Shown one piece after another: positions 1,733 through 45,769 of a stretch of 64,000 bases of DNA (position 1 is its first letter; each line of letters begins with the position of its first letter). A model generated the notes under the pieces. The model did not search any database. It had not been told where the DNA came from and saw nothing but the letters and a program-made list of their open reading frames with translations. Source of the stretch: an uncultured Methanomicrobiales archaeon (GTDB lineage Archaea; Halobacteriota; Methanomicrobia; Methanomicrobiales; Methanospirillaceae); the NCBI GenBank assembly GCA_963697895.1, contig OY969100.1, forward strand, positions 1,792,001 through 1,856,000, given 5' to 3'. The position numbers and the translations under genes are program-made.

Positions 1733-1787
1733 ATTCTATGGCGATAAAATGTATATATGCGGCGGCCCTTTTTCCCTTCGGAAAACC

Positions 1788-2663: not shown

Positions 2664-2754
2664 GCAGTCATCCTTAAACCCCATTATTTTTTGATGAACG
2701 CAATCCCCGGGTTAGAGGGACGAACCGATCGGAACAGGCCCTGCAAGAAGGTAT

Positions 2755-5540: not shown

Positions 5541-5547
5541 GGGCACC

Positions 5548-6794: not shown

Positions 6795-7652
6795 GTGTCA
6801 TTTCCGCATAGATGTTCTATGGGAAGAACAGAATCTGCACCAGGTTTCCTGTATGCACACGTGCTTTTCCTCCTCATGCTATTCTTCATTAGTGCCGCAC
6901 CGGGGGCCATGGCAACAACAACATCACTCCATATCCAGAAGATCGGCGTCGATGGTAAGACGATCCTTGCGGAAAAGACCGTGGATTACCGCTGGATGGA
7001 ACAAAATCTCCCGATTGAAGGGGATGGAACAGTCCATTATTATCACCAGGGCCCGATATTTGCCGATGATCCTGATCCGGCAGCGGAGGAACTCTTGCGA
7101 TGGAATCACCCGGAGGACCGGAATGTCCGGGAAAAGGATATGGGCGCCGTGAAGGGGACAAAACTACCGGATCTGACCGACCTGGTGGGGGGAATGAACC
7201 CGGGCGATACCGTCCGGGTGAAGGCGGATGACGGCTTTTCACGGACCTTTGCCTATGAAAATGTCTATAACCCTCCCCCGAGGCAGGGTCCGATGGTGAT
7301 CACCTGGTTCCGGGCGGATGATGGCTACGTTCCCAATTATACGACGGGTATGCGTCTGGTATTCTTTGCAGATAACGCCACCAACCCGTGGGGTATCCAC
7401 GCATTCGGAAACTGGGACTGGCACGAATCGGCGGCGACCGAATACTGGTATTACTATATCCAGGGGAACGAACGGTACCCGACCACGACCGGACTTTCTG
7501 TACAGTCGGTCTCGGAAATTACGGTCTACCAGGGGAATAATTCCGCAGGATCGGGTACTAATGCAACATCCGGGCCATCTCCCGGTCTCGAGGCACTTTT
7601 GATCGTCTGTGCGCTCGGGCTCGCCGGTATATTCCTTATGAGGAGTCGATAG
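6795..7652 (+). CDS. Secreted, C-terminally anchored protein of the locus-expanded QGP/KGT domain family (copy 1)
   Basis: Signal peptide; HYYHQGP, DMGAVKGT, KADDGF, WDWHE, YPTTTGLSV; C-terminal SPGLE + TM + RSR; start may be 6819. Confidence 0.8.
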   Translation: MSFPHRCSMGRTESAPGFLYAHVLFLLMLFFISAAPGAMATTTSLHIQKIGVDGKTILAEKTVDYRWMEQNLPIEGDGTVHYYHQGPIFADDPDPAAEELLRWNHPEDRNVREKDMGAVKGTKLPDLTDLVGGMNPGDTVRVKADDGFSRTFAYENVYNPPPRQGPMVITWFRADDGYVPNYTTGMRLVFFADNATNPWGIHAFGNWDWHESAATEYWYYYIQGNERYPTTTGLSVQSVSEITVYQGNNSAGSGTNATSGPSPGLEALLIVCALGLAGIFLMRSR

Positions 7653-7653
7653 C

Positions 7654-8518
7654 ATGTATCGCGAAAAAAAGTGTCTTTTCTGTGTCTGGTGTATTGTCAT
7701 CGTGCTGCTCGGGTGTGCCGGATGTCTGTTCATCCCTGTTTCGGCCGCCCCCACGTCCGAACTCCACATCCTCAAGCTCGCAGACAACGGGACGCGGATT
7801 TTGAATGAAACCACGGTCACCTGTCTATGGATGGAATCTCATCTCCCGGTATACGGGGACGGAAAGACGCACTACTACCACCAGGGGCCGGTCTTTGCCG
7901 AATCGAAGGAAGACCAGTGGGACCCGAATGAAACCACTAATTTCAAGGACATGGGTGCGGTGAAGGGAACGGCGGTCAAAGATCTCTGCGAACAGGTCGG
8001 AGGGATGGTCGCCGGCGATGAGGTGATGGTCAAGGCGGATGACGGCTACCACGTGGAATTCCCGTATGCAAATATCTATACCCCCGAGTCACGCCAGGGA
8101 GCCATCGCGGTCTGCTGGTTCAACGGAGAAGAATCGAGCTGTGGGTGAACGGCAGGGTACCGGCTACCCTCCTGATTATTATTCGGGCATGCGGATCGTC
8201 TTCTTTGCGGATAACACCACCAATGCGGGAGGACGGCACGTCTTCGGGAACGCGGACATGCGTGCGGTGATGCCCGCCGAATCGATACACCTGTTCGACA
8301 ACCTCTACCCCTCCACGAGTGGGTATACGGTGAAGTGGGTTGACGAGGTCCGCGTGTACCAGGGAGGATACCATGGCTCCGCCGATGCACTCCCGAAATC
8401 GTTCGCGGCGAAGACGAACGAATCGTATACCCCATCAGAAAAAAGCCCGTTATGGAGCATCTACGTCATAATCGCCCTCATATCCACGGCGTTTATCGCT
8501 TCCCGGAGGAGGAGATGA
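7654..8518 (+). CDS. QGP/KGT domain surface protein (copy 2), one frameshift near 8137
   Basis: ORFs 7654..8148 and 8039..8518 join into one paralog of 6795..7652; ends KSPLW + TM + RRRR. Confidence 0.75.
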
Positions 8519-9105
8519 TTCGGAGGCGCTTCAGGGTTGATCTTTTGGTTATCGCGGCCATCGTCATCCTGTCCGCATTGATCGCAGGATGTACAGGGAA
8601 CGGTACAGGGCCCCCATCTCAGACATCAGACCCCGCATTTGTGGACTGGCATCTCACGCTGAATGGTACCACAGGGAAAGTACTGACCCTGGAAGATCTG
8701 CGTGCCCTCCCGGCGGTCACGGGGCACGGGTATGCCGTTTCGACGACCGGAATCCGGTTTGGCCCCTATCTATGCACGGGAGTGGATCTTAGAGAACTCG
8801 TCTCCCTTGCGGGAGGCATGGAGCAGAACGACTCGGTCTGGGTATCCGCACCGGACGGGTACCTCTGGGTCTTCGATACCGAACAGCTCGAAGGGAGAGG
8901 GTTCATCACCATGAACGAATCCCTCCGGGAGATTCCCTCCCCTCCTCTCCGTATCATTCTCATGTATGAGCAGGATGGTAAGCCGCTTACGTACGATGAA
9001 GGTGGCCCGGCCCGGATCGCGATCGTGTCGGAGAAAAAAGGTATAGTTACCGAAGGGAGTGCCTGGGTCAAATGGGTCGATCGAATCGAGATTCACCGGA
9101 AATAA
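8515..9105 (+). CDS. Lipoprotein with molybdopterin-oxidoreductase (sulfite oxidase/MsrP fold)-like domain
   Basis: LIAGC lipobox; WHLTLNG...TGVDLRELV...SAPDGY...YEQDGKPL..GGPAR...WVKWVDRIE. Confidence 0.75.
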   Translation: MIRRRFRVDLLVIAAIVILSALIAGCTGNGTGPPSQTSDPAFVDWHLTLNGTTGKVLTLEDLRALPAVTGHGYAVSTTGIRFGPYLCTGVDLRELVSLAGGMEQNDSVWVSAPDGYLWVFDTEQLEGRGFITMNESLREIPSPPLRIILMYEQDGKPLTYDEGGPARIAIVSEKKGIVTEGSAWVKWVDRIEIHRK

Positions 9106-10115
9106 CGGCAATAATCAGATATGGCTCCCTGCTCCTCTCCCTCATGATAGTCATGGGGATTGCGGGGTGCCTATCGCAGGGGGAAGAAAAAGTTCCCCTG
9201 AAAGTCTTTGCTGCGGGAAGTCTGTTACTTCCGTTCGATCAGGCCGAGCACGAGTTTGAGCAGCTACATCCGGACATCGATGTCCAGATCGAGGGGCATG
9301 GCAGCATTCAGGTGATCCGGCAGGTCACGGACCTCCATCGTCCGGGGGACATGGTGGCCGTTGCAGACGAATCCCTGATCCCCGATATGATGTTCCGGCA
9401 GATGGACGATTCGGCAGGCAATTACTCCGATTCTCTCATCCCGTTCGGAAGAAACGAGATGGTGATAGTCTACACCAATAAGAGCCGGTACGCTGACGAA
9501 ATAAATGGAAATAACTGGTTTCGGGTACTTTCCCGGCCCGATGTCCGGGTGGGTATCGCGAACCCGATGCTTGATGCGTCGGGGTACCGGGCGTTGATGG
9601 TTACGATGCTTGCCGAGACCGAGTACCGGAACAGTACCATATTCGACCGGGTCATCGGAGACCATTTCTCCCCGCCTCTCAATGTGACCCGGAATGGATC
9701 TGATGTCCGCATCACGCTGCCGGAAGTCATGAAACCCTCGGACGATCATGTCGCGGTACGGGACGGGAGCATCTATCTGCTCTCGCTCCTCGAGACCGGC
9801 GGCATCGATTATGCGTTCGAGTACCGGAGTGTCGCCGAGGGCAATGACCTCAGGTGGATCAGTCTCCCTCCTTCCATCAACCTGGGGTCCGAAGCATATG
9901 AAGATCAGTATCGGACGGTCGCCGTGACCCTCGGTTTCCGGCGTTTCAGCACGATCGGAAGCGAGAGGACAGGGAGGCCGATCGTCTACGCCATGAGCAT
10001 TCCCCACACCGCTTCCCATCCTGAGATGGCCCAGGCATTCGCCGATTATATCGTCAATGAATCAAAGAAAGAACGCATTGGATGGCCTGCACCGTTGGGA
10101 GGAAGCAGCGGATGA
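9072..10115 (+). CDS. wtpA: Tungstate/molybdate ABC transporter substrate-binding protein
   Basis: IAGC lipobox, AAGSL, GSIQVIRQVTDL, DASGYR, IDYAFEYRSVA, INLG; true start probably downstream of 9072. Confidence 0.88.
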   Translation: MGRSNRDSPEITAIIRYGSLLLSLMIVMGIAGCLSQGEEKVPLKVFAAGSLLLPFDQAEHEFEQLHPDIDVQIEGHGSIQVIRQVTDLHRPGDMVAVADESLIPDMMFRQMDDSAGNYSDSLIPFGRNEMVIVYTNKSRYADEINGNNWFRVLSRPDVRVGIANPMLDASGYRALMVTMLAETEYRNSTIFDRVIGDHFSPPLNVTRNGSDVRITLPEVMKPSDDHVAVRDGSIYLLSLLETGGIDYAFEYRSVAEGNDLRWISLPPSINLGSEAYEDQYRTVAVTLGFRRFSTIGSERTGRPIVYAMSIPHTASHPEMAQAFADYIVNESKKERIGWPAPLGGSSG

Positions 10116-10942
10116 CTGCCCGGTTTGGAATCCCCCTGCCGGGGCGTCGGGTCGAATGGAGCATGGTCGCATTCTGGGCGATCGGGGCAATCCTCATCGG
10201 CCTCATATCTCTGGCGATCCTGGTCATCGCCCTCCCCAATCTCGTGCGCCCGGTGCACCTCGCCGAAACGGCGGCCGACCCGCTCGTGATATCAGCCCTC
10301 CTGGTCACCATGGTTGCCGGGCTGAATGCCGTCCTGATCCTGATCCTAACCGGAACCCCGCTCTCGTACGCCCTGTCAAGAACAGAATTCCGCGGAAAGG
10401 GAGTGGTCGAGAGCATCATTGACATCCCGCTCATCCTTCCCCACACGGTCGCGGGGTTGATGGTATATCTCCTCTTCATGACCAGGGGGGTGATCGGTGC
10501 CCCCTTCGCGAGTATCGGGGTGGTCTTCGAAGACGCTTACCCGGGAATCGTTGCAGCCATGGTGTTTGTGGCGATCCCCTACTATGTCAACTCGGTGCGG
10601 GAAGGATTCGAGAAGGTCCCGGTTCACCTGGAAAATGTGGCAAGGACGCTCGGGGCATCCCGGTTCCGGGCATTCTGGCACGTCGCAGTGCCGCTTTCGT
10701 TCCGGCACATCCTCTACGGTTCCCTGCTCGCATGGGGGCGGGCGATCGGAGAATTTGCCGCGGTGATCATGATTGCGTACTTCCCGATCGTGATCTCCAC
10801 GCTTATTTATTACCGGTTCAGCACGGGTGGCATCGTAGAGGCGAGCAGCATCGCATTTATCATGATCCTCGTATGTGCCGCGATCTTCGTATTGTTCCGG
10901 ATTCTCACGAAAAAGAGAGGCATCCGTGATGATCGGGCTTGA
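10112..10942 (+). CDS. wtpB: Tungstate/molybdate ABC transporter permease
   Basis: IDIPLILPHTVAG, ARTLGAS, WGRAIGEF. Confidence 0.88.
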   Translation: MTARFGIPLPGRRVEWSMVAFWAIGAILIGLISLAILVIALPNLVRPVHLAETAADPLVISALLVTMVAGLNAVLILILTGTPLSYALSRTEFRGKGVVESIIDIPLILPHTVAGLMVYLLFMTRGVIGAPFASIGVVFEDAYPGIVAAMVFVAIPYYVNSVREGFEKVPVHLENVARTLGASRFRAFWHVAVPLSFRHILYGSLLAWGRAIGEFAAVIMIAYFPIVISTLIYYRFSTGGIVEASSIAFIMILVCAAIFVLFRILTKKRGIRDDRA

Positions 10943-11993
10943 TAACGTCTCTTTGAAGATTGGATCCTTCTCGCTCAACCGGATATCGCTCGATATCCGG
11001 GACGGTGCCCATGTCTTCCTGATGGGACCATCGGGCGCCGGGAAAACCGTTGTACTGGAGACGATCGCCGGGCTCCACGTTCCCGAACAGGGAGCGGTGC
11101 TCATAGACGGGGTCGATTGCACCACCCTCCCCCCGGAAGAACGGAGAGTTGGGTTTGTCTATCAGGACTATTCGCTCTTTCCCCATTACACGGTAGCCCG
11201 GAATATTGCGTTCGGGATGCAGATGCGAGGAAAATCCCGGGATCACCAGGACCGGATGACCCGCGAACTGATCGACATGCTGGGCATCTCGCATCTCGCC
11301 GACCGGTACCCGCAGACATTGAGCGGCGGGGAGCAGCAACGGGTGGCGCTCGCCCGGGCACTCGCGATCGAGCCCCGGATACTCCTCCTCGATGAACCGT
11401 TTGCGGCGATCGACGCCCTGGCACGGGAAGAATGCATGGAAGGATTGCGGCAGGTGCACCGGAAAACCGACCTCACCATCCTCCAGGTAAGCCATTCCCG
11501 GGAAGAGGCATACACGCTCGGGGACGAGGTGATCCTGCTTGACCAGGGATCTGTCCTCCAGACAGGATCGACTACAGAGGTATTATCTCACCCGGTCAGC
11601 AGGAGAGCGGCAGCGATCGCCGGTTTTGAGAATATCTTCGAGGGAATCGCGGGCGATTCACAGGATGGCATTCTCGATGTTCACCTGAACGGGATCACAT
11701 TCCGGGGGTACGGACACATTCCTCAGGGAAACAGCGTGGTCGTCTGTATCCGTGCAGGTGCGTTCCGGTTTCTCTCTCCGGATGCCCGCGGGGAAAACAT
11801 CGTCCCGGGAGTCGTCAGTTCCCTGATCTATACCGATTACGAATGCAGGGTAACCCTCGAGGGGACTCCTTCGTTCAGGGCCTTTATACCCATACGGATA
11901 GCCAGGTCAGCCGATATCAGGGTTGGAGTGCCCATCCGGATATGTGTTGACCGGAACGAGGTCGTATTCCTCGATGCGGCGGTGCCGGTATGA
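10929..11993 (+). CDS. wtpC: Tungstate/molybdate ABC transporter ATPase with C-terminal TOBE-like region
   Basis: GPSGAGKT, YQDYSLFPH, LSGGEQQRVALARAL. Confidence 0.88.
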   Translation: MIGLDNVSLKIGSFSLNRISLDIRDGAHVFLMGPSGAGKTVVLETIAGLHVPEQGAVLIDGVDCTTLPPEERRVGFVYQDYSLFPHYTVARNIAFGMQMRGKSRDHQDRMTRELIDMLGISHLADRYPQTLSGGEQQRVALARALAIEPRILLLDEPFAAIDALAREECMEGLRQVHRKTDLTILQVSHSREEAYTLGDEVILLDQGSVLQTGSTTEVLSHPVSRRAAAIAGFENIFEGIAGDSQDGILDVHLNGITFRGYGHIPQGNSVVVCIRAGAFRFLSPDARGENIVPGVVSSLIYTDYECRVTLEGTPSFRAFIPIRIARSADIRVGVPIRICVDRNEVVFLDAAVPV

Positions 11994-14900
11994 ACAGGAA
12001 CCGAGTCGTCCGTGGATTACTCACCTGCATTTTCCTGTCGCTCATCCTCGTTATCCCGCCGGGGACCGCGACATCGACGGAAGTACGAATCGTGAAATTC
12101 GCTTCCGACGGGTATACGATCCTCAACGAGACAACGGTTGATTTCCGCTGGATGGAACAGCACCTTCCGGTACAGGGAGACGGAAACACCCATTATTACC
12201 TCCAGGGCCCGGTCTTTGCGGATAACCCGGATGATCGCTGGAACCCCGGGGAAGATACGAATGTAAAAGAGAAGGACATGGGAGCCGTGAAGGGGACGAA
12301 TCTCAAAGACCTCTGCGACCTCGTGGGAGGGATGGCGCTGGACGACGAAATGGTCGTAAAGGCAACAGACGGGTTCAGCCGCACGTTCGCGTATGACAAT
12401 ATCTACTCTCCCCCGTCGCGACAGGGCCCGGTTATTCTCGCATGGTACCGGGCTGACACGGGGTATGTTCCCACATATGCGGAGGGCATGCGACTACTCT
12501 TCCTCGCCGATACTTCGGACAATCCATGGGGGATTCATGCCATAGGGGTCTGGGACTGGCATGAAAGTGCCGCGGAACGGTACTGGTATTACTATTATAA
12601 CGGCAATGAACGGTATCCGACCACGACCGGGCTTTCGGTACAGTCCGTGGGGGAACTCCAGATCTTCAGCCAGGAAGAACCCACCGGGGTCATCCATGTG
12701 ACATCCCGGCCCGATGGCGGCCGGATATATCTCGATGATGAAGATACCGGGGAACTGACCCCCGCGTCCGTCACCGGTGTCACGGTCGGGTCGCATTCCG
12801 TCCGCGTGGAGAAGGACGGGTACGAAGTGCCGGACGAGGCGTGGGTAGACGTCACATACAACCGGGTCTCAGAAGCATTTTTTGATCTGATGCAGATCCC
12901 GGCGGTCTCGTCTGATGGATCCGGGGATTCATCCGCTGAAGAGGAGGACACAAAGGGAAAGGAATCAGGACCATCAGGATCGGAACTGGGCTTTTTCGCG
13001 CAGAATTCCCTGCGGGGAACTATATCTCTTGCAGAAATCCCGGGAATGAACGGATCCTGGAAGGACGGGGTGGAGCGCCCGTTTACCATCCCCGGGCTTC
13101 CCGATCAGGGTCTTGCCTTTGGCCGGTTGTATGTCTTCACCGCGAACTGTTCGGATACCTCATCGGCGTTGAATGAGGATTCCCTGTTTATTCTGAATAT
13201 TTCGGGCAGATCGATCCGGCCGGATCGCGTATACCGCGACCAGGGAGCAGAGGGATCGATCAAAACCTTTGCCTATAACATAACCGGCATTACGGATCGG
13301 GATTCGGGTGCAGCACTCCGCATGGAATCCCCGCCGGGGAGCTTATGCACGGTGGAAGGAGTGGTCATGCTTGGAGCCGTGGAAAATGATACGGCACAGC
13401 GGGTATCGTACCGGGTAAATGAAGGAGCGGATCTCATTGCTTCATCTCCCGGGCAGCCCCTGATCGACGCGGGAACCACGGCCGAGTTCGATATGGATCC
13501 TTTTGGAGTACCGTATACCCAGGCAAATCTCACCTTCATCACCACCGGAATGATCGCTGATCCCGCACCACGGTTCCAGGTCCAGGTAAACGGGGAGACC
13601 ATCTCGGGGACCTTCCCCGCGTCGGCGGACCCGGTGCATATCGCCAGAGTTTCATTCGAACCCCCCCCGCCGGGATCTCCGGTGGTTACATCCATACAGG
13701 CATTGATCAATCAAACGAACGGGTTGTACGGGGAAACCCGGGTTGCGGTCTTTACATTCACCGCGGTGAATGCCTCAAATCTGACACAATCGGCCCCCTA
13801 TGAAAATAAATCCGCCGAATCGGAACAAAATCAACATCCCATAGCAACATCTCCTCCCGTCACCATCGGGGAATCCTTACAGTCACCATCTCCCCCAGCC
13901 CCCGCGAATATACACGAACCGCCGGGCACAGGTCCGATCCACTGGATTACAGATATTTTCGATGCAATTACTACATTTATTCTTACCCTGTTCGGAGAAC
14001 CGGTTCCGGCCATTGCAACCGGAACGTCGGCACCGAACCCGGAACCGGGCAATCAGAGTATAGCAGACACAACTGATGCATCTCAACCGGGAACCGGAGA
14101 TGAACTCCAGGGATATCCGGAGGTTAAGAATAATGAGTCAGCTGTTTCGTTCGACCCTGATGATGAACACTCCGGCGTTGACGAAAAAACGCAGGATAAT
14201 ACCCTGAGCGCCACAACCGGTACCCCGGTTTCCCATCACGGGGGAGTGTATATCACTTCGTATCCCGCAGATGTCGAGCTGCGCATCGATAACAAGGTGA
14301 TCACCCGTCATCTCCCGGCGGTTATCTACGGAATGAGAGAAGGGATCCATTCGATCGAGGTACGGTTGAAATCCGATGATAACCGCATCATCGGCTCACA
14401 GTCCTCACGGGTCTGGATTTACCCGGAAGCCATAACGACCGCTCACTTCGACCTGGTCAGACCCGATATAAAACAGCAGGTTCATGTCAGCACCCGTGAT
14501 GGAACCAATGTTTCATTCGCCCTGAACGGATATTACCCCCTCCAGCGCACGCCTGCAGATATCGAATTCACCGGGACAGACCCCTTCATATCCGTCACCT
14601 ACGATGGTTCCTATCTTTCCTATACACTCTCCGCGAGGGTCATCAATACCGGGGAAATGGTGATTCTTCCCGGAATGCCCGACCTGTACCGGCTCCCGGT
14701 CGAGTCCTCCCCTTCCGGTGCGGAGGTGATCGTGGACGGGATACGCACGGGATACCGGACACCGGCGGTTGTTCCAAACCTCTCTGCCGGACTGCACCGG
14801 ATCATCGTCTCCCTTCCCGGGTACGATCCGGGAGAGGGGGTGGTCTCCATCCCGGTGAATGACGAGCCGATCGTGAAAACGCCTCTCCGCTATACCCTTG

Positions 14901-16446: not shown

Positions 16447-16606
16447 ATTATTTCGAATTGAAAAGCACCAGAGCCCGCAATCATGAAGAGAGACCTGTTC
16501 ACATTAACCGGGTAAACTTAACTTTTTCCTATAACCATCGGGAATACTAACCTTTGTGCATTGACGGACCTGGCTCCCATCAGGTCTTCGGACAGGTGAT
16601 TCAAGC

Positions 16607-19600
16607 ATGAAAACGATACCGGCAATCATTACTCTCAGTGTTTCCCTATTTTTCATGGCAGCACTCTTCATCGTGCCTGTACTGGCAGCAGCGACCACAT
16701 CGGTCCAGATTATCAAGTATGCAGACGATGGATCGACGATTCTGAATCAGACCGCGGTCGATTTTCAGTGGATGGAGACCCATTTACCGGTCTATGGGGA
16801 CGGGGTCACCCATTACTATCACCAGGGACCGGTCTTTAACGACAGTATCCCTGACAAATGGAACCCGGAAGAGAACGATCCTGCCATCCTGACGAAAGAT
16901 TACGGGGCACTAAAAGGAACCGATTTAAAAGAGCCTGTGTGATCTGGTCGGGGGTATGCAGGCGGATGATTACAATGTCACGCTTAAGGCATCGGATGGA
17001 TTCTCCAAGGCCTTTGCCTATTCGAGTGTCTATAATCCACCTGCCCGGGCAGGGCCGATCGTCCTCACCTGGTACAGGGCCGATCAGGGGTATGTCAATG
17101 GTTCGTATACAACCGGAATACGGAACGTGATGTTTGCAGACACCTCTACAAATCCCTGGGGGGACCATGTCTTCGGACTCTGGGACATGCACGAGTCCTA
17201 TCCCGAAGCGTTCTGGTATTATTACCAGCCGGGGCTCCCGAGTACAACCGGCCTCTCGGTCCAGAATATTGCCTATGTCATCATTTACAGTTCAATTTCG
17301 CCACCGGAGACCCCATCCGCGAACTTCTCCGCCCTTCCTGTATCGGGAACGATCCCGCTTACCGTTCAGTTTACAGACAGACTCCCTGAATGATCCGACG
17401 AGCTGGGCCTGGGACTTCGACGATGACGGTGATGTCGACAGCATCGCCCAAAGCCCGGTATTCACCTATGCCGTGCCCGGGTCCTATTCGGTGAATCTTA
17501 CCGTCATGAATGCCGCCGGGAGCGATTCCGATGTTAAGATAGGGTATATCAATGCATTTGCAGCAACCAACACAACCCCAGCCATATCGTTCGTTCCCGC
17601 ATCCGCGTCCGTGCTCCCGGGAGGTTCAAAGGAGTATGAGATCAGGGTGGACAGCCTCCCGAAAGGTCTTGCGGGTTATGATCTCGTCTGCACCGTCTCA
17701 AACACCAGTGTCGCCGAGATCATCTCGGTCTCCTATCCGTCCTGGGCCGGTCTCCGGAATACCACGAATTACTCTGCCTGGTCCGTCCGGTTAAGCGGAG
17801 TGGATACCGACCGTCAGATTCAGCCGGGGGCAGTAAATGTGATCCTGGCAAACATGACTCTCAAAGGAGACATGGCCGGAGTAACGCCGATCGTCATCAG
17901 CAATGTGCACATGGACGCGGATGGGGGAGATGCGATAAATTCCTCGACGAATAACGGACAACTCATCGTCCAATCACTAACTCCGGCACCACCGGTAGCA
18001 AACTTCACCGGAACACCGAGATCAGGGAATGCTCCGTTGTTGGTCCAGTTCACCGACACTTCAACCGGTTCTCCGACGTCATGGGCCTGGGACTTCAACA
18101 ACGATGGGGTGATCGACAACACGAGCAGGAATCCGATGTATACCTACCTGAGTCCCGGAACGTATTCGGTGAACCTCACGGTCACGAATGCGGGCGGAAG
18201 CGACAGCGAGCTGAAGATGAATTATATTTCGGTGCAGTCACCGCCTCCGGCACCACCGGTTGCGAACTTCACGGGAACACCAAGGTCGGGGAATGCTCCG
18301 TTGTCTGTCCAGTTCATCGATACCTCGACTGGTTCCCCGACGAGCTGGGCCTGGGACTTCAACAACGACGGAGTGATCGACAACACCTCGCGAAATCCGA
18401 TGTATACCTACCTCAGTCCCAGAACGTATTCGGTGAACCTCACGGTCACAAATGCCGGCGGAAGTGACAGCGAACTGAAGACGAATTACGTCTCGGTGCA
18501 TTCACCGCCTCCGGCACCACCGGTTGCGAACTTCACGGGGACACCGAGATCAGGGAATGCTCCGTTGTCTGTCCAGTTCACCGACACTTCAACCGGTTCT
18601 CCGACGTCATGGGCCTGGGACTTCAACAACGATGGGGTGATCGACAACACCTCGCGGAACCCGATCTATACCTACCTAAGTCCGGGAACGTATTCGGTGA
18701 ACCTCACGGTCACGAATGCGGGCGGAAGCGACAACGAGCTGAAGATGAATTACGTCTCGGTGCATTCACCGCCTCCGGCACCACCGGTTGCGAACTTCAC
18801 GGGAACACCAAGGTTGGGGAATGCTCCGTTGTCTGTCCAGTTCATCGATACCTCGACTGGTTCCCCGACGAGCTGGGCCTGGGACTTCAACAATGACGGG
18901 GTAATCGACAACACCTCGCGGAACCCGATCTATACTTATCCGAGTCCGGGAACGTATTCAGTGAACCTTACGGTCACGAATGAAGGGGGAAGCGACAGCG
19001 AGCTGAAGACGAATTACATCACGGTGCAGGCACCGCCACCAGCTCCGCCGGTTGCGAACTTTTCGGGGACACCTCGATCCGGGAATGCCCCGTTGTCTGT
19101 CCAGTTCACTGACACTTCATCCGGTTCACCAACCAGCTGGGCCTGGGACTTCAACAACGACGGAGTGATCGACAACACCTCGCGGAATCCGATGTATACC
19201 TATCCGAATCCGGGAACGTATTCGGTGAACCTTACGGTCACGAATGCGGGCGGAAGCGACAGCGAGCTGAAGACGAATTACATCACGGTTTTGACACCAC
19301 CTCCCGCACCACCGGTCGCGAACTTCACGGGGACACCGAGATCGGGGAATGCTCCGTTGTCGGTGCAGTTCACTGACACTTCATCCGGAAGTCCGACGTC
19401 ATGGGCCTGGGACTTCAACAACGACGGAGTGATCGATAACACCTCGCGGAACCCGAGTTATACCTATCCGAATCCCGGAACGTATTCGGTGAACCTCACC
19501 GTCACAAATGCTGGTGGAAGCGACAGCGAGCTGAAGACGAATTATATCTCGGTGCAGGCAACACCCTCGGGAACAGCATCCGTCAGCGGTTGGGTCTCTA

Positions 19601-19959
19601 CAGGATCGGATATCGGATCTGTGTACGTCCCGGAGATCAGGGTCCGGTTCGCAACGAGCGTTTCCGATCTTTCCAACCCGGATCACTATTGGGAAGCAAC
19701 GACCGACCAGCGGGGAACGTATTCGATATCCGGCCTGCCGTCCGGAGTGACGCTCTATGCAAAGGCCCTGTCTCCTGTCGCTCGTCCGAATGCATATCTG
19801 GAACGGCCAATCCAGTACGAGGTGAATTCCGGCCGCCTGATCACCTGTCAAAACATTTCCAGCACCCCGCAGGTACTGCCGATCGCATTAGATGGCAAAA
19901 TACAGGTCAACTGGGTTCTGACTCAAAACCCCAGTGCCTTTGGTCTGCTCCTCTTATAA
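16607..19959 (+). CDS. Surface protein: QGP/KGT domain (copy 4) + PKD + cohesin-like + 6 tandem PKD; frameshifts near 16933 and 17380
   Basis: Three ORFs (16607..16942, 16956..17393, 17134..19959) are collinear with the 20102 paralog; WAWDF PKD motifs; GLAGYDL cohesin-like domain. Confidence 0.78.
17974..19557 (+). repeat. Six tandem 264-bp (88-aa) PKD-encoding repeats
   Basis: ccggcaccaccggttgcgaacttc recurs at 18247, 18511, 18775 (264-bp period); six PPVANF...WAWDF units in translation. Confidence 0.95.
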
Positions 19960-20101
19960 TTTTTTTCTCCCTTAAAGAGAATTAATATTGTTAAGTTAAC
20001 TAATACAATAATTAAATAGTAATGTTGATATCTGTTTCAAACGACTTCGATAATACCAGTCAAAAATTTTCTATCGAGCATTTCGACTGAGGTGAATTCA
20101 T

Positions 20102-23100
20102 TTGAGACAATTTCCCGTAAAATATACTTTGTATGCCGTGTTCATCCTCGCGGCAGTACTGCTTCTCGCGCCCGTAATGGCGGCGACGACTTCAGTACAT
20201 ATTGTAAAGTATGCGAATGACAATACGACCATCCTGAACGAAACAACGGTTGATTTCGCGTGGATGGAGGCAAATCTGCCGGTGCTTGGTGATGGTGTAA
20301 CACATTATTACCTGCAAGGGCCGGTGATGAATGAAAGCATCACTGATAAGTGGAACCCCGAGGAGAACGATCCCGCCATTCTCACAAAGGATTTCGGGGC
20401 GGTAAAAGGAACCGATCTTAAAGATCTTTGTGACTTGGTCGGTGGTATGCAGCCGGATGACTACAACGTCACGCTTAAAGCGCCGGATGGATTTAAACAG
20501 GCCTTTGCCTATTCAAGCATTTATAATACTCCCGCACGAGCAGGGCCGATCGTACTTACCTGGTACAGAGCAGATCAGGGTTATGTAAACGGTTCATATT
20601 CCGCGGGTATCCGGAACGTGATGTTTGCTGACACATCAACAAATCCCTGGGGGGATCATGTCTTCGGACTCTGGGATATGCATGAGGTCTATCCGGAAGC
20701 GTTCTGGTACTATTACCAGCCTGGCTTCCCGAGTGCAACCGGGCTCTCCGTTCAGAATATCGATCGAGTTCTTATCTATACCAACGACCCGGCGCCCCTC
20801 AACGCAAACTTCACGGCAAACGTAACCACCGGCCAAGTCCCGTTGGCCGTCCAGTTTAACGACACATCTACCGGTGGTCCGACAACATGGGCCTGGGATT
20901 TCTTTAATGACGGGACCATCGACAGCAACGCCCGTAACCCGGCATACACCTTTCCCGTTCCCGGTAATTACACGGTAAATCTGACGGTAACGAACGCAGA
21001 TGGAAGAGACAGTGAGGTGAAAACGAATTTCATTCATGTAACTGCCATCCCGGCATTCAATGTAATATTTAACGGCACCGTTACCCTAACCCCGGGTGAG
21101 ACATTTACTCAACTGGCGTACAATACCGGGACAAACTATACGGTCAACCGGACCACCCCGCTCGGGGCATTGAACGCTGCGGCAACGACCGCCGGATTCA
21201 CATATTCTGTAACTGATAAAAAATGGTCTGCAGATCAGGTCCTTCTTCTTGATAACGTCAGTGCCTATACGAAAGCTACCGGTAAATGGTATGCATATGT
21301 GAATGACGTATACAAAGATGGTGTCGGGAATCATCCAAATGGGTTGAACGTGATCGAGCTCTTCGATAACGATAGGGTTGAATTCTACTTTACAACCACA
21401 AGTGTCTCCGATCCTACTAATCTCACTGCAGTAAAGGAGCTGGCGACAACTGCAGTGAAGACCATTGCGGACATCCCTACCGTTCCTTCAATGGATGTCG
21501 TTTTTAACGGTACCGTGACCCTTACCCCGGGTGAAACGTTTACTCAACTGGCGTACAATACCGGGACAAACTATACGGTTAACCGGACCACCCCGCTCGG
21601 GGCATTGAACGCTGCGGCAACGACCGCCGGATTCACATATTCTGTAACTGATAAAAAATGGTCTGCAGATCAGGTCCTTCTTCTTGATAACGTCAGTGCC
21701 TATACGAAAGCTACCGGTAAATGGTATGCATATGTGAATGACGTATACAAAGATGGTGTCGGGAATCATCCAAATGGGTTGAACGTGATCGAGCTCTCCG
21801 ATAACGATAGGGTTGAATTCTACTTTACAACCACAAGTGTCTCCGATCCTACTAATCTCACTGCAGTAAAGGAGCTGGCGACAGCTGCAGTGAAGACCAT
21901 TGCGGACATCCCTACCGTTCCTTCAATGGATGTCGTATTTAACGGTACCGTGACCCTCACCCCGGGTGAAACATTCACCCAGCTGGCGTACAACTCCGGG
22001 ACAAACTATACGATCAACCGGACCACGCCGCTCGGTGCATTGAACGCTGCGGCAACGATAGCCGGATTCACGTACGATGTAACGGATAAGCGATGGTCTT
22101 CCGATCAGGTGCTCCTGCTCGATAACGTGTCTGTCTACAACAAATCCGCAGGCAAGTGGTATGCGTACGTGAACGGTGTATTCAAGGACGGGTACCAGAA
22201 CCATCCTGATGGCCTGAACGTTTTCGCGCTTGCGAACAATGATCAGGTAAATTACTTCTTCTCGATCAACGGTACCAATCTCACCGCCCCGACCGATGCT
22301 ATCGCAGCGGTGAAGATCAAAGTAAATATCGCAGGTTCAACTCCATCCGACTGGTCCCTCTCCCTCAGGGGTGCACGGACAGACACCATAACCAAGTCAT
22401 TCTTTGAACAGGCACTTGCGTGCCCAAGTTCAGGCCACCAGGTGAACTGGACCGATACCGACGGAAGTGTGTGGAGTGGTGTACCCCTCTGGCTTCTCGT
22501 GGGCGTGATCGACGACAACCCCGATGTCGGGCCCGATCACTTTAATTTCAATGATTCACTCGCCGCACAGGGATATTCGGTAAAGATAACCGCCGGCGAT
22601 GGCTTCAACACCACACTCGCGAGCGCCGACATCGCCCGCAATAACGGGTATATCGTTGCAAATAAACTGAACGGGAGCGATCTCCCGCTTCTTACTCCGG
22701 GAGGAAAGCGGTGCTGGCCGCTCTACCTGAAAGGTTCGGCGGTATTCGGCGGGCAGCAGGTCGGAAACATCACCTCAATCGAGCTCACGGGAATGCCACA
22801 GCCATCAGCTGGCTGGACACTAACGATGGAGGGTGACGTTACTGATGTGATCACCCAGGAATACTTCGAACAGGCGATCGCCTGCCACCACAACGTGACC
22901 TATACCGATGCAGGGGGGAGCGTCTGGACTGGTGTTGCCCTCTGGGACCTGGTCGGTTCCGTGGATGACATCGAGACGACCAGCCACTGGACATTTAATG
23001 ATACCCGGGCAAATGTAACCGGGTATACCGTCAGGGTTATCGCCGGCGATGGATTCAATAAAACATTTGACAGCCTCAACGTGAGCCATAATAACGGTTT

Positions 23101-25699
23101 TATTGTTGCAAATACTCTGAACGGATCAGCTCTCAGCGGTACAAACGGGCATTTGAAGCTCGTCGGACCGGCGACCACCTCCGGTCAACAGCGGGTCGGC
23201 AATATCACGACAATCCGCCTGGAAGGCCTCCCATCGTATCCTGCAGGGGCATACAGTCTCTCCCTGAAAGGAAAGATCAGCGATATCATCCCCGAACCGG
23301 AACTCGAGGCTTGGATTGCGGCGAATACTGCGACATACACTGACAGCAACGGGAATGAATACTCCGGTATTCCCCTTTGGTATTTGCTTGGCTGGGTGGA
23401 TGATCGGATTCCTGCCGGTCCAAATGGGTTCAACGAGGCGACCGCGGCAGCCGGTTACAAGGTGATTGTGAAAGCGGGTGATGGCTACTCGAAGGAGTTC
23501 TCGAGCACGACGATCGGGAAAAACAACGATCTGATCGTCGCCAATATGCTGAACGGGACTGCTCTTCCGAGCGACGGAAGTCATCCGCCATGGCCGCTCC
23601 GGCTGGTTGGGCCAGGGGCGACCGGAAGCAACAGCGTCGGGAATATCGTGGAGATTGACCTGACCGATTTCCAGACCGTGCAGTACCCGCGATTCCCCTC
23701 CATATCATCAAGTACGGTCCTGACGGAACCACCATCATCAATCAGACGAACGTAACCTATCAGTGGATGGAAATAAACCTCGCCGTCATCGGGGACGGGG
23801 TAACTGCGTATAAGTTCGAGGGTCTCACGCTCAACTCCTCGAACCTGTGGGACCCCGAGGAGACCTATCCGGGGGGGTTCAAGATCTCGAACGTGGTGAA
23901 AGGAACCCGTGTCCATGACTTGGCTGAACTCGTTGGCGGGATGGGATCGGGAACAACGATCACCTTCGTCGCAAGCGATGGCTTCGAGACAACACTCCCT
24001 TACTCGTCAATTTATACCAACCCGGCGATCCAGTCCCGGCAGGGAGATGCCGTCCTTGCTTGGTGGGGCGATGGGCAGTACGTGCCCGGTTATGCGGATG
24101 GGATGCGCCTCTTCTTCATGCCGTCTGACCATATCTATGGCCAGTGGGACATGCACGAGACACTGCCATCCCAGTACTGGCGTTATAATTACCAGGATGG
24201 TGTCCAGTACCCGTCCTGTGCGGGGCTTTCTGCAAAGTACATCACCGCCATCAAGGTTTATTCCTCTCCGGAATCAGACTGGACCCTGAATCTGGACGGG
24301 CGGGATATCGGCGGGATCAATTATACCGTGAGCAAGCCATACTTCGAGGAGGCACTGGCCTGCCAGTTCGAGTCGAACCACAGTGCAACCTTCACCGATA
24401 GCAGCGGACGGGTATGGGAAGGGATGCCGCTCTGGTTCCTCTGCGGGTTCGTCGATGATGCCGACATGCATTCTGCTAACTCCTACAACGACACAAAGGC
24501 GCTCGCGGGTTACAATATCACCATCACCGGAACGGATGGGTACAACTATACCTTCGATAGCAGGGATACGATCCGGAGTACCAACTATATCGTCGCGAAC
24601 ACCCTGAATGGCACGCATATCAACGGATCGGATTCCAGCTGGCCGCTGCGGCTTGTCGGGCAGAATGTGACCGGCGGAATGGTGGTCAAGAAGATCGCGT
24701 CGATCAAACTGACTCCCCAGGCATCTCTTCCACCCGAAACCCCGACCATATCGGTCGTTCCTGCCAGCCAGTCGTTCCCGGTGGGGACGAGCAGGGAATA
24801 CCAGATCGTGATGAATTCCATCCCGCCGGGTCTCGCGGGGTATGATCTGGTCGTGACCTGTTCCAATGCAAGTGTTGCGGAGATCCTCTCCATATCGTAT
24901 CCTTCATGGGCCGGGTTGAGCAATAACACCGTGATTACCCCGTCATCATTAAAACTGAGTGCGGTGGATACAAACCGGCAGGTCCAGCTGAATGCAACGA
25001 ACGTGGTCCTCGCAAATGTTACCGTAAAGGGTAATGCGGCAGGGACGACCTCCATTGTTATCACGAAGGTGCATATGGATACCGATGGCGGGGGGATTAT
25101 CACCCCTGATATCGTAAACGGACGGGCAATTGTATTCAGCCCCCTGAATGCGGATTTCAGCGGGACCCCGAGGACCGGCATGGCGTCGAGGAATGTATCG
25201 CTCGACGTGAATTTCACGGATCTTACGACCGGGTCGCCGAATGCGACGGCATGGCACTGGGACTTCGGGACGCTCGGGAACGGCAACACATCGACGGCGC
25301 ATAATCCAAAGGCCCACTACTACGGGGTAGTAGGGAGTGTATCCGACTCCAGCCTCGTGAGACTCTACGGGAACCATACCGTGACTCTCATCGCGAGCAA
25401 TGCGTATAACCAGTCGACGAAGGTCCGGACGGATTATATCTATATCACGCCACTGCTGAAACCGTTCCCCGGGTACACTTTACTGCCGACAGATATGAAC
25501 AGCGACTGGATGATGGAGGACATCAACGGCAACGGAAACCTCGATTATGACGACGTGGTCGCGTATTACCAGAACATGCAGTGGATCCGGGACCAGGTCG
25601 ATGTCGGTGTCGAACCTGTACGACTACAACAACAACGGTCGCATCGATTACGATGATGTCGTGGTTCTCTACTGGATCATCCTGGACAGTCATCCATGA
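20102..25699 (+). CDS. Giant surface protein: QGP/KGT domain x2, PKD x2, DUF4430-like x3, sulfite-oxidase-fold-like x4, cohesin-like, C-terminal dockerin-like; frameshifts near 23680 and 25618
   Basis: ORFs 20102..23755 and 23767..25656 joined by alternate frame LHIIKYGPDGTTIINQTNVTYQWME; alternate frame at end gives YDYNNNGRIDYDDVVVLYWIILDSHP-stop 25699. Confidence 0.78.
21058..22330 (+). repeat. Three tandem 435-bp (145-aa) repeats, first two nearly identical
   Basis: VxFNGTVTLTPGETFTQLAYN coding units at ~21061, 21496, 21931. Confidence 0.92.
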
Positions 25700-25942
25700 T
25701 CCTTGAGAGTGAGTCTGAGACTGCCGGACATAAACCGGCATCATTTTTTTTTTGAAAACGAATAAGGGCAATCGGATCCTATTGAATGAGTGGAAATGAA
25801 TCACATACCCAAGTCATTCCGGATAAGCAGTATCTCACCCGTAAAAAGGACAGCCCTGATCCCCCATTCGGTGATCTCAGTTGAATTGTTCTGAATCCTT
25901 TTCCCGTCCGGATGGACGGGTTATCATATCTCGCGAGGGACC

Positions 25943-26830
25943 ATGAAACACGCAATCCTCATAATTATCCTGATATCAGCCGCAGCATTCGCGTGCAGCT
26001 GCTCCGCTGCACCGACTCTGTCATTTGATCCCGTTGAACTGACCCTGGACCAGGGATCATCGGGAACCGTATCGATTTTTCTCTCGGAAGCACCGGATGG
26101 CCTTGCCGGCTATGACCTTGTGGTCACCCTGGCAAACCCCGGTACTGCCCGGATCACCGCAGTCTCGTACCCGTCCTGGGCAGGACTGAGTAACAGTTCG
26201 GGTGTTCCCGGAGAGCAGGTCTTCATGAGCGGTGTCGACATCAACCGGCAGGTGCAGGCGGGAGCGACGGGTATCCAGCTCGCGACCATTACCCTTGAGG
26301 GAGGAACAACGGGCACATCCACGCTGACAGTCTCGGATATCCATATGGATGCCGACGGAGGGGCGGGGATTGTTCCGTTAGTGAATACCGGGACGGTCGT
26401 CGTGGGTTCGGGGGTACTCCGGTCACCTGGACAACGGTCCCGACGACGGCCCCCGTGACGACGACGGTAACCGCGGCGTCTTCGACCGGCTCATCGTCTT
26501 CTGGTAATGGGGGCAGTTCCGGCGGAGATGGAGCCGGAACCTCCTCTGCGGAGACCACTTCCCCCGTGACGGGTGTCACTACCGTGTCACTCACACCGCT
26601 CGAAACCCATGTTGAAATCCCGGTCAGCACGCCATCCGCCGAACCTTCTCCGGCAACGGCTGTGACCGGAGACGACGACTGGAGCGAGCGCACCCCCGGC
26701 AACCCTGCCCAAGTTACCGTCTGTGCCGTCAGCCCTTGCCGGAATACCGCTCCTCTGGCTGGGAATCGTGATTATTCTGATCATAATCAGCATTGTCATC
26801 CTGGTTCTCGCCATAACCAAGAGGATCTAA
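25943..26830 (+). CDS. Membrane-anchored single cohesin-like protein with Ser/Thr linker; frameshifts near 26415 and 26670
   Basis: Signal peptide, APDGLAGYDL...SYPSWAGL...MDADGG domain; alternate frame ends LLWLGIVIILIIISIVILVLAITKRI-stop 26830. Confidence 0.75.
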
Positions 26831-27063
26831 CTTTTTTTCCGCTGTCATCTCCCGAATTGAACTGAGGTTTGGGAGATGAACCGGCTTGATCGAAATGAAT
26901 ATCTAAAAGAATCGGGTCAAGTACGCGAATATCAGACAGACAACAGGTAATCAGCAGACTAAAATTGCCATTCGTCTCTTCGAGATTCGGCATTCATCGG
27001 TTCCCGTTAAAAAAACCTCTCCTTTAATGCATTATCCGTCGATTCATTCTTACTGGTGACGGA

Positions 27064-38799: not shown

Positions 38800-38979
38800 A
38801 AAAATTATTCTTAAAAATATCCAGCGCAAATCTTTCGATGGAATGGTTCTCTCAAATGATAAATTTTTTAAATCATTGATTTTTTTATAATTCTGTTGAA
38901 ATTCTCGAGGAAGTTTCCTTCAAAAAATAACTCACGTCAATATTGTTAACCCGTAACGGATAATTGTTTTAAAAAATTA

Positions 38980-42208: not shown

Positions 42209-42418
42209 TTCTCGTATATCCTCTACTACCAGATTCCTCTGAAATATATATAAGGCATGCGTAAAACTCTCTGATTAATCTTCTTCATGGCGATTAAATT
42301 ATTAAAATAAAATAATATTATAAATTATCACGGAAAAATTTTCTATTTATAAATAGATCCTCATTTTTAGATAGTTATATTAAGATGAATATTATATCAA
42401 GAGTGAGGCTTAAGAGAG

Positions 42419-45673: not shown

Positions 45674-45769
45674 ACAAAATCTCAATTTTATAAGATTTAA
45701 AGTCAGATTTTTCCGTAAATTATAAGGAATTTAAAAAATGTTCTTTGTCGAGTTATATAAAAAAACCGC

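Follow-up and report, generated by a model that had tools for sequence, protein, structure and literature searches.

Among described proteins, the closest to those reported here is PruR (PDB 7kom, 7kp2, 7kos, 7kou, 7rkb; PMC11194511), a cofactor-less protein of the sulfite-oxidase (SUOX) fold exported to the periplasm of Agrobacterium, Vibrio and Klebsiella. It lacks the Mo-ligating cysteine, has a truncated Cys hairpin, and its gene lies immediately 5' of that for its partner, the c-di-GMP enzyme DcpA. The same fold is found in the SUOX-family molybdoenzymes (1sox/1ogp, SorT, YedY/MsrP 1xdq), which retain this cysteine and in which Tat export and dimerisation, heme or MsrQ partner domains are seen. 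Tungstate/molybdate importers are represented by WtpABC of Pyrococcus furiosus and its relatives (PDB 3cg1, 2onk, 3cfx, 3cfz; PMC10221389). In the zinc relay of Streptococcus pneumoniae, the surface metal binder PhtD and the ABC-importer binding protein AdcAII are encoded in one operon, and metal transfer from the former to the latter is reported (PMC3842936).

The window analysed here, a stretch of 64,000 nucleotides from a methane-producing archaeon, holds at 6795-26865 on the + strand a single array of same-strand genes of about 20 kb, operon-like, with secreted or anchored products and wtpABC in their midst. The eight genes over 6795-16446 abut or overlap. The tight junctions that the first-pass annotation had listed (7652/7654, 8518/8515, 10115/10112, 11993/11990, 15142/15139) were found again, together with a further overlap, 9105/9072, and the signal peptides and lipoboxes it had described are seen in the ORF translations. 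The genes are as follows, X being a repeated domain and SOsmall a small lipoprotein.

6795-7652, + strand: X1, 285 aa, with signal peptide, X domain (6918-7544) and C-terminal membrane anchor
7654-8518, + strand: X2, second small X-domain surface protein (X domain 7744-8139 + 8162-8368); frame break near 8140 in the assembly
8515-9105, + strand: SOsmall, lipoprotein with a single cysteine-less SUOX-fold domain; its end overlaps the start of wtpA
9072-10115, + strand: WtpA of the cluster-type clade, lipoprotein, predicted to bind tungstate/molybdate
10112-10942, + strand: WtpB-like ABC permease
10929-11993, + strand: WtpC-like ABC ATPase (ORF begins at 10875, probable start 10929)
11990-15142, + strand: X3 protein, 1050 aa, with signal, X domain (12068-12685), DUF3344 and PEGA repeats
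15139-16446, + strand: secreted metallophosphoesterase, purple-acid-phosphatase-like (PF00149, PF16656)
16607-19959, + strand: X4 protein, with signal, X domain (16688-16939 + 16956-17324), cohesin-like module and seven PKD repeats; frame breaks near 16933 and 17381
20102-25696, + strand: giant protein, represented by two ORFs, 20102-23755 and 23767-25656 (frame broken near 23681 and near 25617), with X5 (20183-20767), PKD, three transcobalamin-beta-like repeats (21056-22345), three Cys/His SUOX modules (22346-23668), X6 (23692-24264), a fourth Cys/His SUOX module (24274-24717), a cohesin-like module (24745-25143), a PKD-like module and a dockerin-like end
25943-26865, + strand: small cohesin-like protein whose tail is rich in Ser/Thr; frame broken near 26409

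Four genes (X2, X4, the giant protein and the small cohesin-like protein) are thus broken into extra ORFs by frame breaks that are missing in other assemblies. Over the X2 stretch, the contigs of three runs each have one gap; the X4 breaks are not in the contigs of the two runs labelled X3 and X4, nor those of the giant protein in the contigs of other runs. In a relative (G123), the giant protein is one uninterrupted ORF of 2027 aa.

The six-copy domain X is real (about 200 aa, 41-66% identity), and all eight of its matches in the 2.09-Mb genome lie within the locus. The first-pass annotation had taken it for an unknown domain, separate from five sulfite-oxidase-like modules, a split that missed their common fold. 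A separate domain is ruled out by hhalign, where the X profile matches the SOsmall family at 97.5% (E 5.7e-12), and by the structure prediction and Foldseek search that had been proposed: the AlphaFold model (pLDDT 95.0) retrieves SUOX-fold entries throughout ranks 1-45, with the pterin-binding PruR (7kom) at rank 1. The model aligns to 7kom over 131/134 residues (Z 12.1, rmsd 3.2; VIA) and to chicken sulfite oxidase with Z 12.1, so that X is a divergent SUOX/PruR fold. The five modules named earlier hold up as SOsmall plus the four starting at 22346, 22808, 23246 and 24274, bringing the SUOX-fold modules of the locus to 11.

SOsmall passes PF00174 (41.6 bits; cut-off 24), and its profile, which lacks the Cys hairpin, matches that of 1ogp, a plant sulfite oxidase, at E 3.9e-7. 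The four modules of the giant protein, scanned singly, give weak Pfam matches only for the third (22 bits) and the fourth (16.7 bits), and their family profile matches that of SOsmall over 123 columns (95.4% probability, E 1.8e-8). In this family the Cys is conserved in 95/108 and the His in 101/108 large-protein modules, within the motif FE...AC(x0-4)H...[YW]TD; its profile reaches SorT at E 6e-4, and in the HMMER alignment, a weak one, the conserved Cys lies outside the canonical column. No conserved domain Cys is present in SOsmall or X, the signals are of the Sec type (SOsmall carries a lipobox), and TatC was not found in the genome (93.85% complete); SOsmall and X are therefore probably not Moco enzymes. 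Compared with PruR, SOsmall is similar in size and likewise directly upstream of its presumed partner, which here is WtpA and not DcpA. Sequence similarity to PruR is borderline (E 0.019 for the SOsmall profile against 7kom), X has about 70 additional residues, giant surface proteins carry the modules in arrays reaching six, and the carriers are archaea and Firmicutes, whereas those of PruR are Proteobacteria.

Among the remaining modules, the seven PKD repeats, PEGA, DUF3344 and the phosphatase (Metallophos and Pur_ac_phosph_N) are confirmed by Pfam. The cohesin-like module has no match in Pfam and PDB sequence searches, and its 30 best Atlas matches are all Cohesin (top score 0.96), which backs the earlier call; the dockerin-like end gives weak EF-hand matches only. 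The three 145-aa repeats likened earlier to DUF4430, which Pfam does not match at E up to 1, give a model (pLDDT 96.3) that resembles the transcobalamin beta domain (PDB 5no0, 5np4; Z 8.2-8.3, rmsd 2.3-2.5 over 86 residues; next best 5.3). Their first Atlas match is a DUF4430 cluster (score 0.87), although the Foldseek E-values are just 0.17-0.26, and there is no sign of a corrinoid link within the locus. The phosphoesterase is found in 38 of 67 X-centred loci, and its metal-ligand motifs show conservation of 95% or more across 42 homologs.

With 315 bits, the WtpA of the locus clears the TIGR03730 cut-off of 242.75, and it matches the WtpAs in the PDB at E 1e-64; WtpB and WtpC have NF040839 (252 bits, under the cut-off of 340) and NF040840 (301 bits, under the cut-off of 440) as best matches. 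Cluster-type WtpAs keep AGSL, GS and D..GYR, but form a clade of their own, with 34-39% identity to the further WtpA paralogs that their genomes carry (51 SOsmall-linked against 12 other paralogs, SH-aLRT 100). They also differ in an invariant His in GHGS, an invariant Glu in DYAxEY and the invariant RDGS that replaces RS.E.E/D of the solved WtpAs. We take the latter stretch to be the Glu-ligand site, and the ligand chemistry of cluster-type WtpA may therefore differ.

The co-location of homologs with W/Mo transporters, which the first-pass annotation had named beforehand as its test, is very strong. The 67 X-centred loci include SOsmall in 50 and cluster-type WtpA in 47, directly downstream of SOsmall in 47/47 (HSP gaps -30 to +70 nt); at loci of at least 12 kb (n = 44), the counts are 42 and 39. 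In 19 of the 47 WtpA-bearing loci, WtpBC is not beside WtpA. Four of five complete X-positive genomes, from five genera, have the arrangement, with all four strong SOsmall genes directly upstream of a WtpA; the exception (G087) has an X cluster whose surroundings hold neither SOsmall nor WtpA nor the phosphoesterase. In five complete X-negative relatives, neither SOsmall (0/5) nor cluster-type WtpA (0/5) was found. Across the complete genomes checked, G087 apart, the cassette genes are jointly present or jointly absent. Outside the order, a SUOX-fold gene lies directly 5' of WtpA in 9 of 11 loci fetched.

SOsmall also occurs in Syntrophomonas-type bacteria (6 of 61 genomes searched in that order). 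In four of these six, the same-strand cassette has RF01055 riboswitches (50-80 bits) immediately upstream of its first gene; these four genomes are related to one another, and each carries 7-12 riboswitches of this type. The P3 stem is absent in all five alignments examined, and the P3-less Moco/Tuco type is tied to tungsten-cofactor metabolism by Regulski et al. (2008, PMC2408646). In one bacterial copy, a c-di-GMP-II riboswitch lies 5' of the Moco/Tuco one. No riboswitch was found in the archaeal window.

The WtpA enrichment, the joint presence and absence and the bacterial Moco/Tuco riboswitches make it a well-supported prediction that the surface proteins are functionally linked to W/Mo homeostasis. 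To that extent the earlier reading, in which the flanking proteins would form a W/Mo capture apparatus, is partly supported; its separate unknown domain is not. We consider it probable that this conserved cassette serves a first, extracellular stage in acquiring tungsten/molybdenum, and we infer a chain of binding and transfer steps towards WtpA. Surface modules would capture scarce W/Mo species outside the cell, the phosphoesterase and the SOsmall lipoprotein would process them or pass them on, WtpA would take up the oxyanion and WtpBC would import it. Weighing against this reading are the window without a riboswitch, the G087 cluster, the 19 loci with no WtpBC beside WtpA, the altered RDGS stretch of cluster-type WtpA, and the kinship and many riboswitches of the bacterial genomes. 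Its closest analogy may be the PhtD-AdcAII relay, which differs in its histidine-triad fold, metal and organisms and has no processing enzyme; transfer is demonstrated there and proposed here.

As to what is captured, we tentatively favour pterin-bound or otherwise complexed W/Mo, possibly cofactor from dead cells in anoxic habitats, with the phosphoesterase helping to free the metal. Against this, the genome has MoaC and two MoeA and makes its own cofactor, so pterin salvage is not needed, and the sole ligands known for cofactor-less SUOX folds are free pterins acting as signals (PruR; PMC11194511). Somewhat doubtful, yet to be taken seriously, is that free tungstate, molybdate or their thio-forms are bound directly by the SUOX modules, chiefly the ones bearing the conserved Cys and His, and concentrated at the cell surface for WtpA without pterin, the phosphoesterase-like protein being an oxyanion-binding module and not an enzyme. 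The synteny, the WtpA clade and the riboswitches would apply equally, and the conserved Cys and His and the genome's own cofactor synthesis speak for it, as does the fact that purple acid phosphatases are classically and tightly inhibited by tungstate and molybdate. However, X and SOsmall lack the Cys, the phosphoesterase shows full conservation of its catalytic metal ligands, as an enzyme would, and we know of no SUOX-fold protein that binds a bare oxyanion without pterin.

Other functions of the same proteins appear improbable to differing degrees. It is unlikely that SOsmall and X carry no metal and instead control WtpA, the transporter or surface behaviour on binding free pterin as a signal: PruR pterin binders are the nearest solved structures, SOsmall is small, exported, cysteine-less and placed like PruR (PMC11194511), and the single c-di-GMP-II riboswitch would fit, but 11 modules on giant surface proteins far exceed the need of a sensor, no DcpA-type partner was seen, with no GGDEF/EAL among the domain matches of the locus genes, and what is conserved alongside is a binding protein, an importer and a phosphoesterase. 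Still less credible is scavenging of phosphate or another anion, in which the phosphoesterase would free phosphate, the altered WtpA-like protein would import it or the other anion and the SUOX proteins would be general binders. While pstSCAB-phoU lies directly upstream in the window, the secreted phosphoesterase is conserved and the WtpA binding-site stretch is altered, pst/phoU adjoin the cassette in just 2/67 loci (L006, L044), WtpA passes the tungstate equivalog model with its motifs retained, and the bacterial copies are behind Moco/Tuco riboswitches and not phosphate control. The SUOX fold, and the Ig-like, PEGA, PKD and cohesin-like modules usual in surface proteins, could also indicate extracellular Moco enzymes (MsrP/YedY-like, sulfite-oxidising) or plain adhesion/S-layer proteins merely travelling with wtpA; this we regard as highly improbable, given the absence of the Mo-ligating Cys and its hairpin in X and SOsmall, the Sec export without a detected TatC in the genome, and an SOsmall-WtpA adjacency too strict for hitch-hiking.

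No published description of the cassette was found in the literature searched for it, and it appears to be an outer step of tungsten/molybdenum acquisition that has so far gone undescribed.

Between 6795 and 26865 every long open reading frame (ORF) found in the scan of the window lies on the + strand. The parts of this cassette that bear most on its interpretation are:

8515-9105, + strand: SOsmall, a small cysteine-less lipoprotein with a sulfite-oxidase (SUOX) fold
9072-10115, + strand: cluster-type WtpA, the WtpA clade linked to SOsmall
20102-25696, + strand: giant multimodular protein, which includes copies X5 and X6 of the repeated X domain
21056-22345, + strand: three 145-residue repeats of the giant protein
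22346-24717, + strand: four Cys/His SUOX modules of the giant protein, at 22346, 22808, 23246 and 24274

The first eight genes follow one another with abutting or overlapping ends (7652/7654, 8518/8515, 9105/9072, 10115/10112, ~10942/10929, 11993/11990 and 15142/15139), so that they look like a single translationally coupled operon. Strand and gene ends thus bear out the first-pass annotation, which had described a co-oriented array of abutting and overlapping genes, and its claim of general secretion also stands, as a signal peptide or lipobox starts all products in the translations but the permease and the ATPase. Pfam also names PEGA, DUF3344, seven PKD repeats, a small PF00174 (Oxidored_molyb) protein and a purple-acid-phosphatase-like metallophosphoesterase. 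WtpA exceeds the cut-off of the tungstate equivalog TIGR03730 (315 bits vs 242.75; 315.4 bits in the genome search), and the WtpB- and WtpC-like partners are best matches that score under their NCBIfam cut-offs; the transporter is a variant of WtpABC.

Directly upstream of the cassette, at 1749-6198, lie pstS, a fused pstC-pstA ORF (647 aa), pstB and phoU. A phosphate regulon, which such neighbours might suggest, was rejected as a reading of the cassette because pst/phoU adjoin it in only 2 of the 67 related loci drawn from the best 80 of 207 stretches. On the other side, the stretch 38000-48000 is low in GC (41-43% vs ~55%), carries an IS1595-type transposase, DUF7287/7288/7289 proteins and a 1084-aa VWA/Big_1 protein, and is possibly a mobile island.

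In this assembly, four genes of the cassette are split by six interruptions, near 8140, 16933, 17381, 23681, 25617 and 26409. Contigs from four public metagenome runs were compared along the locus, and they have one or two letters fewer, or one more, exactly at 16933, 17381, 23681, 25617 and 26409; across 8069-8350 the contig pieces show a single gap, those of the near-identical metagenome run X1 included. Five of the breaks are therefore absent in other public runs, and the sixth, near 8140, is probably absent too. In the relative G123 one uninterrupted ORF of 2027 aa encodes the giant protein, and together with the other runs' contigs this makes the breaks private to this assembly, either as assembly errors or as very recent changes; consensus errors are the likely cause. 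A decaying pseudogene cluster, the other meaning that so many breaks could have, was rejected on the same two observations, and the interrupted genes should be read as whole. The second small X gene is likewise broken into two frames in the complete genome of G123 (locus L071, 17168-17777), at a position different from that of the window's break.

The X domain, of approximately 200 residues, occurs in six copies with 41-66% mutual identity, and all eight X matches in the 2.09 Mb, single-contig genome fall within the locus. The first-pass annotation had counted an unknown domain six times; the count stands, but X is not a separate unknown. Although it has no Pfam or NCBIfam family, and its profile finds nothing meaningful among PDB sequences, it aligns with the SOsmall profile at 97.5% probability (E 5.7e-12), and the SOsmall profile in turn matches X domains of other genomes at E 1e-5 to 1e-7. 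An AlphaFold2 model built from 40 sequences (pLDDT 95.0, pTM 0.91) retrieves in Foldseek SUOX-fold entries exclusively at ranks 1-45, led by PruR (7kom, E 4.4e-4; 7rkb, PruR with neopterin, 5e-4). VIA-align superposes the model on 7kom with Z 12.1 and an rmsd of 3.2 Å over 131/134 residues, and gives Z 12.1 for chicken sulfite oxidase and 8.0-8.5 for YedY. By model and profile alignment alike, X is a SUOX fold. Its family comprises 603 cluster representatives at E <=1e-3, and the conserved columns of the 40 X sequences contain no Cys.

The six X copies included, the locus encodes 11 SUOX-fold modules. The SOsmall profile matches plant sulfite oxidase 1ogp (E 3.9e-7) in an alignment from which the hairpin segment bearing the Mo-ligating Cys is absent, and its 51 homologs have no conserved Cys besides that of the lipobox. 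The four modules of the giant protein constitute a third family, related to SOsmall (95.4% probability, E 1.8e-8, 123 columns) and to SorT sulfite dehydrogenase (E 6e-4). A conserved motif, FE...AC(x0-4)H...[YW]TD, distinguishes them from X and SOsmall, which are both cysteine-less: of 108 modules in the window and its related loci, 95 have the Cys and 101 the His, and there is an invariant DD pair as well. This Cys lies outside the canonical column in what is a weak HMMER alignment, and the conserved Cys/His and DD look like a metal site.

The modules of the locus have the fold that binds molybdenum cofactor (Moco) in the SUOX family (PF00174), which would fit an exported Moco enzyme. The conserved Mo-ligating hairpin Cys of such enzymes is missing, and so is the Tat export typical of the extracytoplasmic ones; X and SOsmall differ from SUOX enzymes in both respects. 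SOsmall homologs carry Sec-type lipoprotein signals, with a lipobox in 37/51, and a twin-arginine motif is inconsistent (RR within 40 aa upstream in 15/51 only); no TatC match was found in the genome, which is 93.85% complete. Since Sec exports proteins unfolded, Moco inserted in the cytoplasm could presumably not be carried along. Without the Cys, without TatC and with Sec signals, an exported Moco enzyme was rejected.

The distribution of the cassette was surveyed in a scan of one genome per species, which gave 207 stretches encoding X relatives, of which the best 80 were kept and merged into 67 distinct loci. Most of these 67 loci (best 80 of 207) carry the labels Methanoregulaceae, Methanolinea, Methanoculleus or Methanospirillum, and three come from bins assigned to Syntrophomonadaceae (L048, L051) or Chloroflexota (L057). 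SOsmall is present in 50 and cluster-type WtpA in 47 of the 67 (best 80 of 207), with WtpB in 29, WtpC in 30 and the phosphoesterase in 38, and missing genes fall mostly on short contigs; when the same selection is limited to its 44 loci of 12 kb or more, SOsmall is found in 42 and WtpA in 39. Adjacency is strict: within the best 80 of 207 stretches, all 47 cluster-type WtpA genes directly follow SOsmall (HSP gaps of -30 to +70 nt), so that WtpA is the next gene in 47/50 SOsmall loci, the other three (L005, L022, L032) having no whole WtpA match. This lends good support, for the loci that hold WtpA, to the proposed tie of the surface proteins to a W/Mo transporter.

Presence and absence are also joint in complete genomes. 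The order X, SOsmall, WtpA is found in four of the five complete X-positive genomes, which represent five genera, and their strong SOsmall genes (4/4) directly precede WtpA. SOsmall is absent from five complete X-negative genomes of the same family, and the only WtpA among them, encoded by one genome, is of another type. In the relative G087, a cluster (L079, G087:C1:730000-745000) encodes five X-domain proteins plus repeat and SUOX modules and has no SOsmall, WtpA or phosphoesterase nearby, so that X proteins can occur apart from the transporter. X, present in 68/151 searched genomes of the order and 10/31 of the window's own family, is thus an accessory trait. SOsmall was detected in 35/301 searched genomes of the phylum; of its 11 matches outside the order, nine have a SUOX-fold gene directly before WtpA, eight the full order X, SOsmall, WtpA and five the phosphoesterase.

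The WtpA of the cassette belongs to a dedicated clade. In a quick maximum-likelihood tree (IQ-TREE) of 63 rows, 51 SOsmall-linked sequences are separated with an SH-aLRT of 100 from 12 others, namely six non-cluster paralogs (G000, the window's own genome, and its relatives G123, G008, G009, G087 and G011) and six second copies elsewhere in the loci. Cluster-type sequences retain AGSL and GS, as well as the Asp of D..GYR, which is invariant in 63/63 rows. They read RDGS in 49/51 rows vs RSMEME, RSMEVE or RSKETD in solved WtpAs, and in this RS.E stretch we presume the metal-ligand Glu to lie, going by A. fulgidus numbering. Two further differences from the solved WtpAs are invariant residues, the His in GHGS and the Glu in DYAxEY. 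In P. furiosus WtpA, Asp160 and Glu218 bond tungsten directly, according to the Hagen review (PMC10221389). Judged by these residues, the metal-binding chemistry of cluster-type WtpA may differ from that of textbook WtpA. The second WtpA of the window's genome (L068 7207-9180; G000:C1:1273206-1275179) is a 657-aa protein with an N-terminal PBP_like_2 fusion, with a TOBE-bearing ABC ATPase gene next downstream, and the same long frame occurs in G087 and G011.

Among the other surface modules, those that the first-pass annotation called DUF4430-like have a fold match and no Pfam family. The three 145-aa repeats have no Pfam match, and none to DUF4430 at E <=1; their model (pLDDT 96.3) superposes on the transcobalamin beta domain with Z 8.2-8.3 and an rmsd of 2.3-2.5 Å over 86 residues, the next best match reaching 5.3. 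Foldseek taken alone is weak (E 0.17-0.26), and the top Atlas match is a DUF4430 cluster (0.87). For the three modules described as cohesin-like, the best 30 Atlas matches are all Cohesin (top 0.96), yet there is no Cohesin (PF00963) match in Pfam at E <=1 and no PDB sequence match; the dockerin-like end found no Dockerin (PF00404) match at E <=1 and weak EF-hand matches only.

The metallophosphoesterase (PF00149, 61 bits; PF16656, 33 bits) has the metal ligands and the N-terminal Fn3-like domain of the purple acid phosphatase type. Conservation of its dinuclear-metal ligand motifs (D, GD, GNH, H, HxH) reaches 95% or more across 42 homologs, which fits a putatively active phosphoesterase. The window's protein has Asn in place of the Tyr of GDxxY, the motif of the purple chromophore, and is therefore probably not 'purple'.

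In Syntrophomonas-type bacteria, the whole cassette is found at 40-60% identity and with the same gene order (L048, L051, L097-L100), and their WtpA forms a branch next to the archaeal cluster type; identity and branching suggest a possible transfer between methanogens and their syntrophic partners. In the four riboswitch-bearing genomes described below, the bacterial genes form an uninterrupted, same-strand array of X plus repeat protein, giant protein, phosphoesterase, X, SOsmall, WtpA, WtpB, WtpC and X. No Rfam match was obtained in the window, where an RF01055 aptamer 5' of the operon is thus lacking, nor in L048, L051 and L057 over stretches that excluded the 5' end of the cassette. Searches of whole genomes located riboswitches upstream of bacterial cassettes. 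SOsmall is encoded in 6/61 searched genomes of that bacterial order, and one or two copies of RF01055 (50-80 bits, gathering score 36) stand directly 5' of the first cassette gene in four of these six, a count that overstates independence, since the four genomes are kin with 7-12 such riboswitches each; the remaining two bear none on the cassette's contig. As annotated, the aptamers show the whole bacterial cassette to be under predicted riboswitch control. The P3 stem is missing in all five aptamer alignments inspected, and P3-less representatives of RF01055 track tungsten-cofactor metabolism, according to Regulski et al. (2008, PMC2408646). At the head of one bacterial cassette (L098 138-223, genome G399), a c-di-GMP-II riboswitch (RF01786, 57.7 bits, gathering score 53.5) directly precedes the molybdenum/tungsten cofactor riboswitch, which would be a tandem of two riboswitch classes.

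Of known systems, PruR is like the cassette in fold and gene position, being a small exported Cys-less SUOX fold with a truncated hairpin. The cassette differs from it in operon structure, as it is not a bicistronic operon with a DcpA-type c-di-GMP enzyme. No description of such a system was found in the main texts of openly accessible papers, nor any accessory extracellular component of Mod, Tup or Wtp importers, and the available parts of the 2024 PruR paper and a 2026 pterin-signalling review do not describe one. The nearest working analogy is the PhtD-AdcAII zinc relay (PMC3842936).

The cassette is probably, in our view, a surface import route, and we infer each of its steps: surface modules would capture W/Mo species, the phosphoesterase and the lipoprotein would process them or pass them onward, and WtpA with WtpBC would import them. 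As to the ligand of this route, a complexed, pterin-bound metal is slightly favoured, because pterins are the only known ligands of the cofactor-less SUOX fold (PruR; PMC11194511), because the phosphoesterase is a conserved partner and because cofactor-type folds come along. The genome encodes its own cofactor synthesis (MoaC, two MoeA), which counts against the pterin-bound version, and an antenna for the bare oxyanion, formed by the Cys/His modules, is about as likely.

A bolder extension, which we regard as rather improbable, is that strict anaerobes harvest W/Mo from extracellular pterin cofactor, with the surface arrays, phosphoesterase, lipoprotein and dedicated WtpA acting in relay. PruR-like arrays and transcobalamin-beta-like modules would catch tungstopterin, molybdopterin or their breakdown products from dead cells, material that would last only without oxygen; the secreted phosphoesterase would strip the captured cofactor, and the SUOX-fold lipoprotein would give the freed metal to the dedicated WtpA. 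If true, this would constitute a trace-metal cofactor-recycling route common to methanogens and their syntrophic bacterial partners, across domains.

W/Mo enzymes such as formylmethanofuran dehydrogenase and formate dehydrogenase gate methanogenesis and syntrophic formate transfer. To our knowledge, the acquisition by anaerobes of trace, sulfide-complexed W/Mo is poorly understood, and the cassette, which extends to further families of the phylum and, under tungsten-type riboswitches, to syntrophic Firmicutes, supplies concrete proteins with which it can be tested. If confirmed, the proposed route would add a step to W/Mo homeostasis and give the SUOX fold a non-enzymatic role besides PruR signalling, and it would be relevant to trace-metal dosing of anaerobic digesters and to methane-cycle models.
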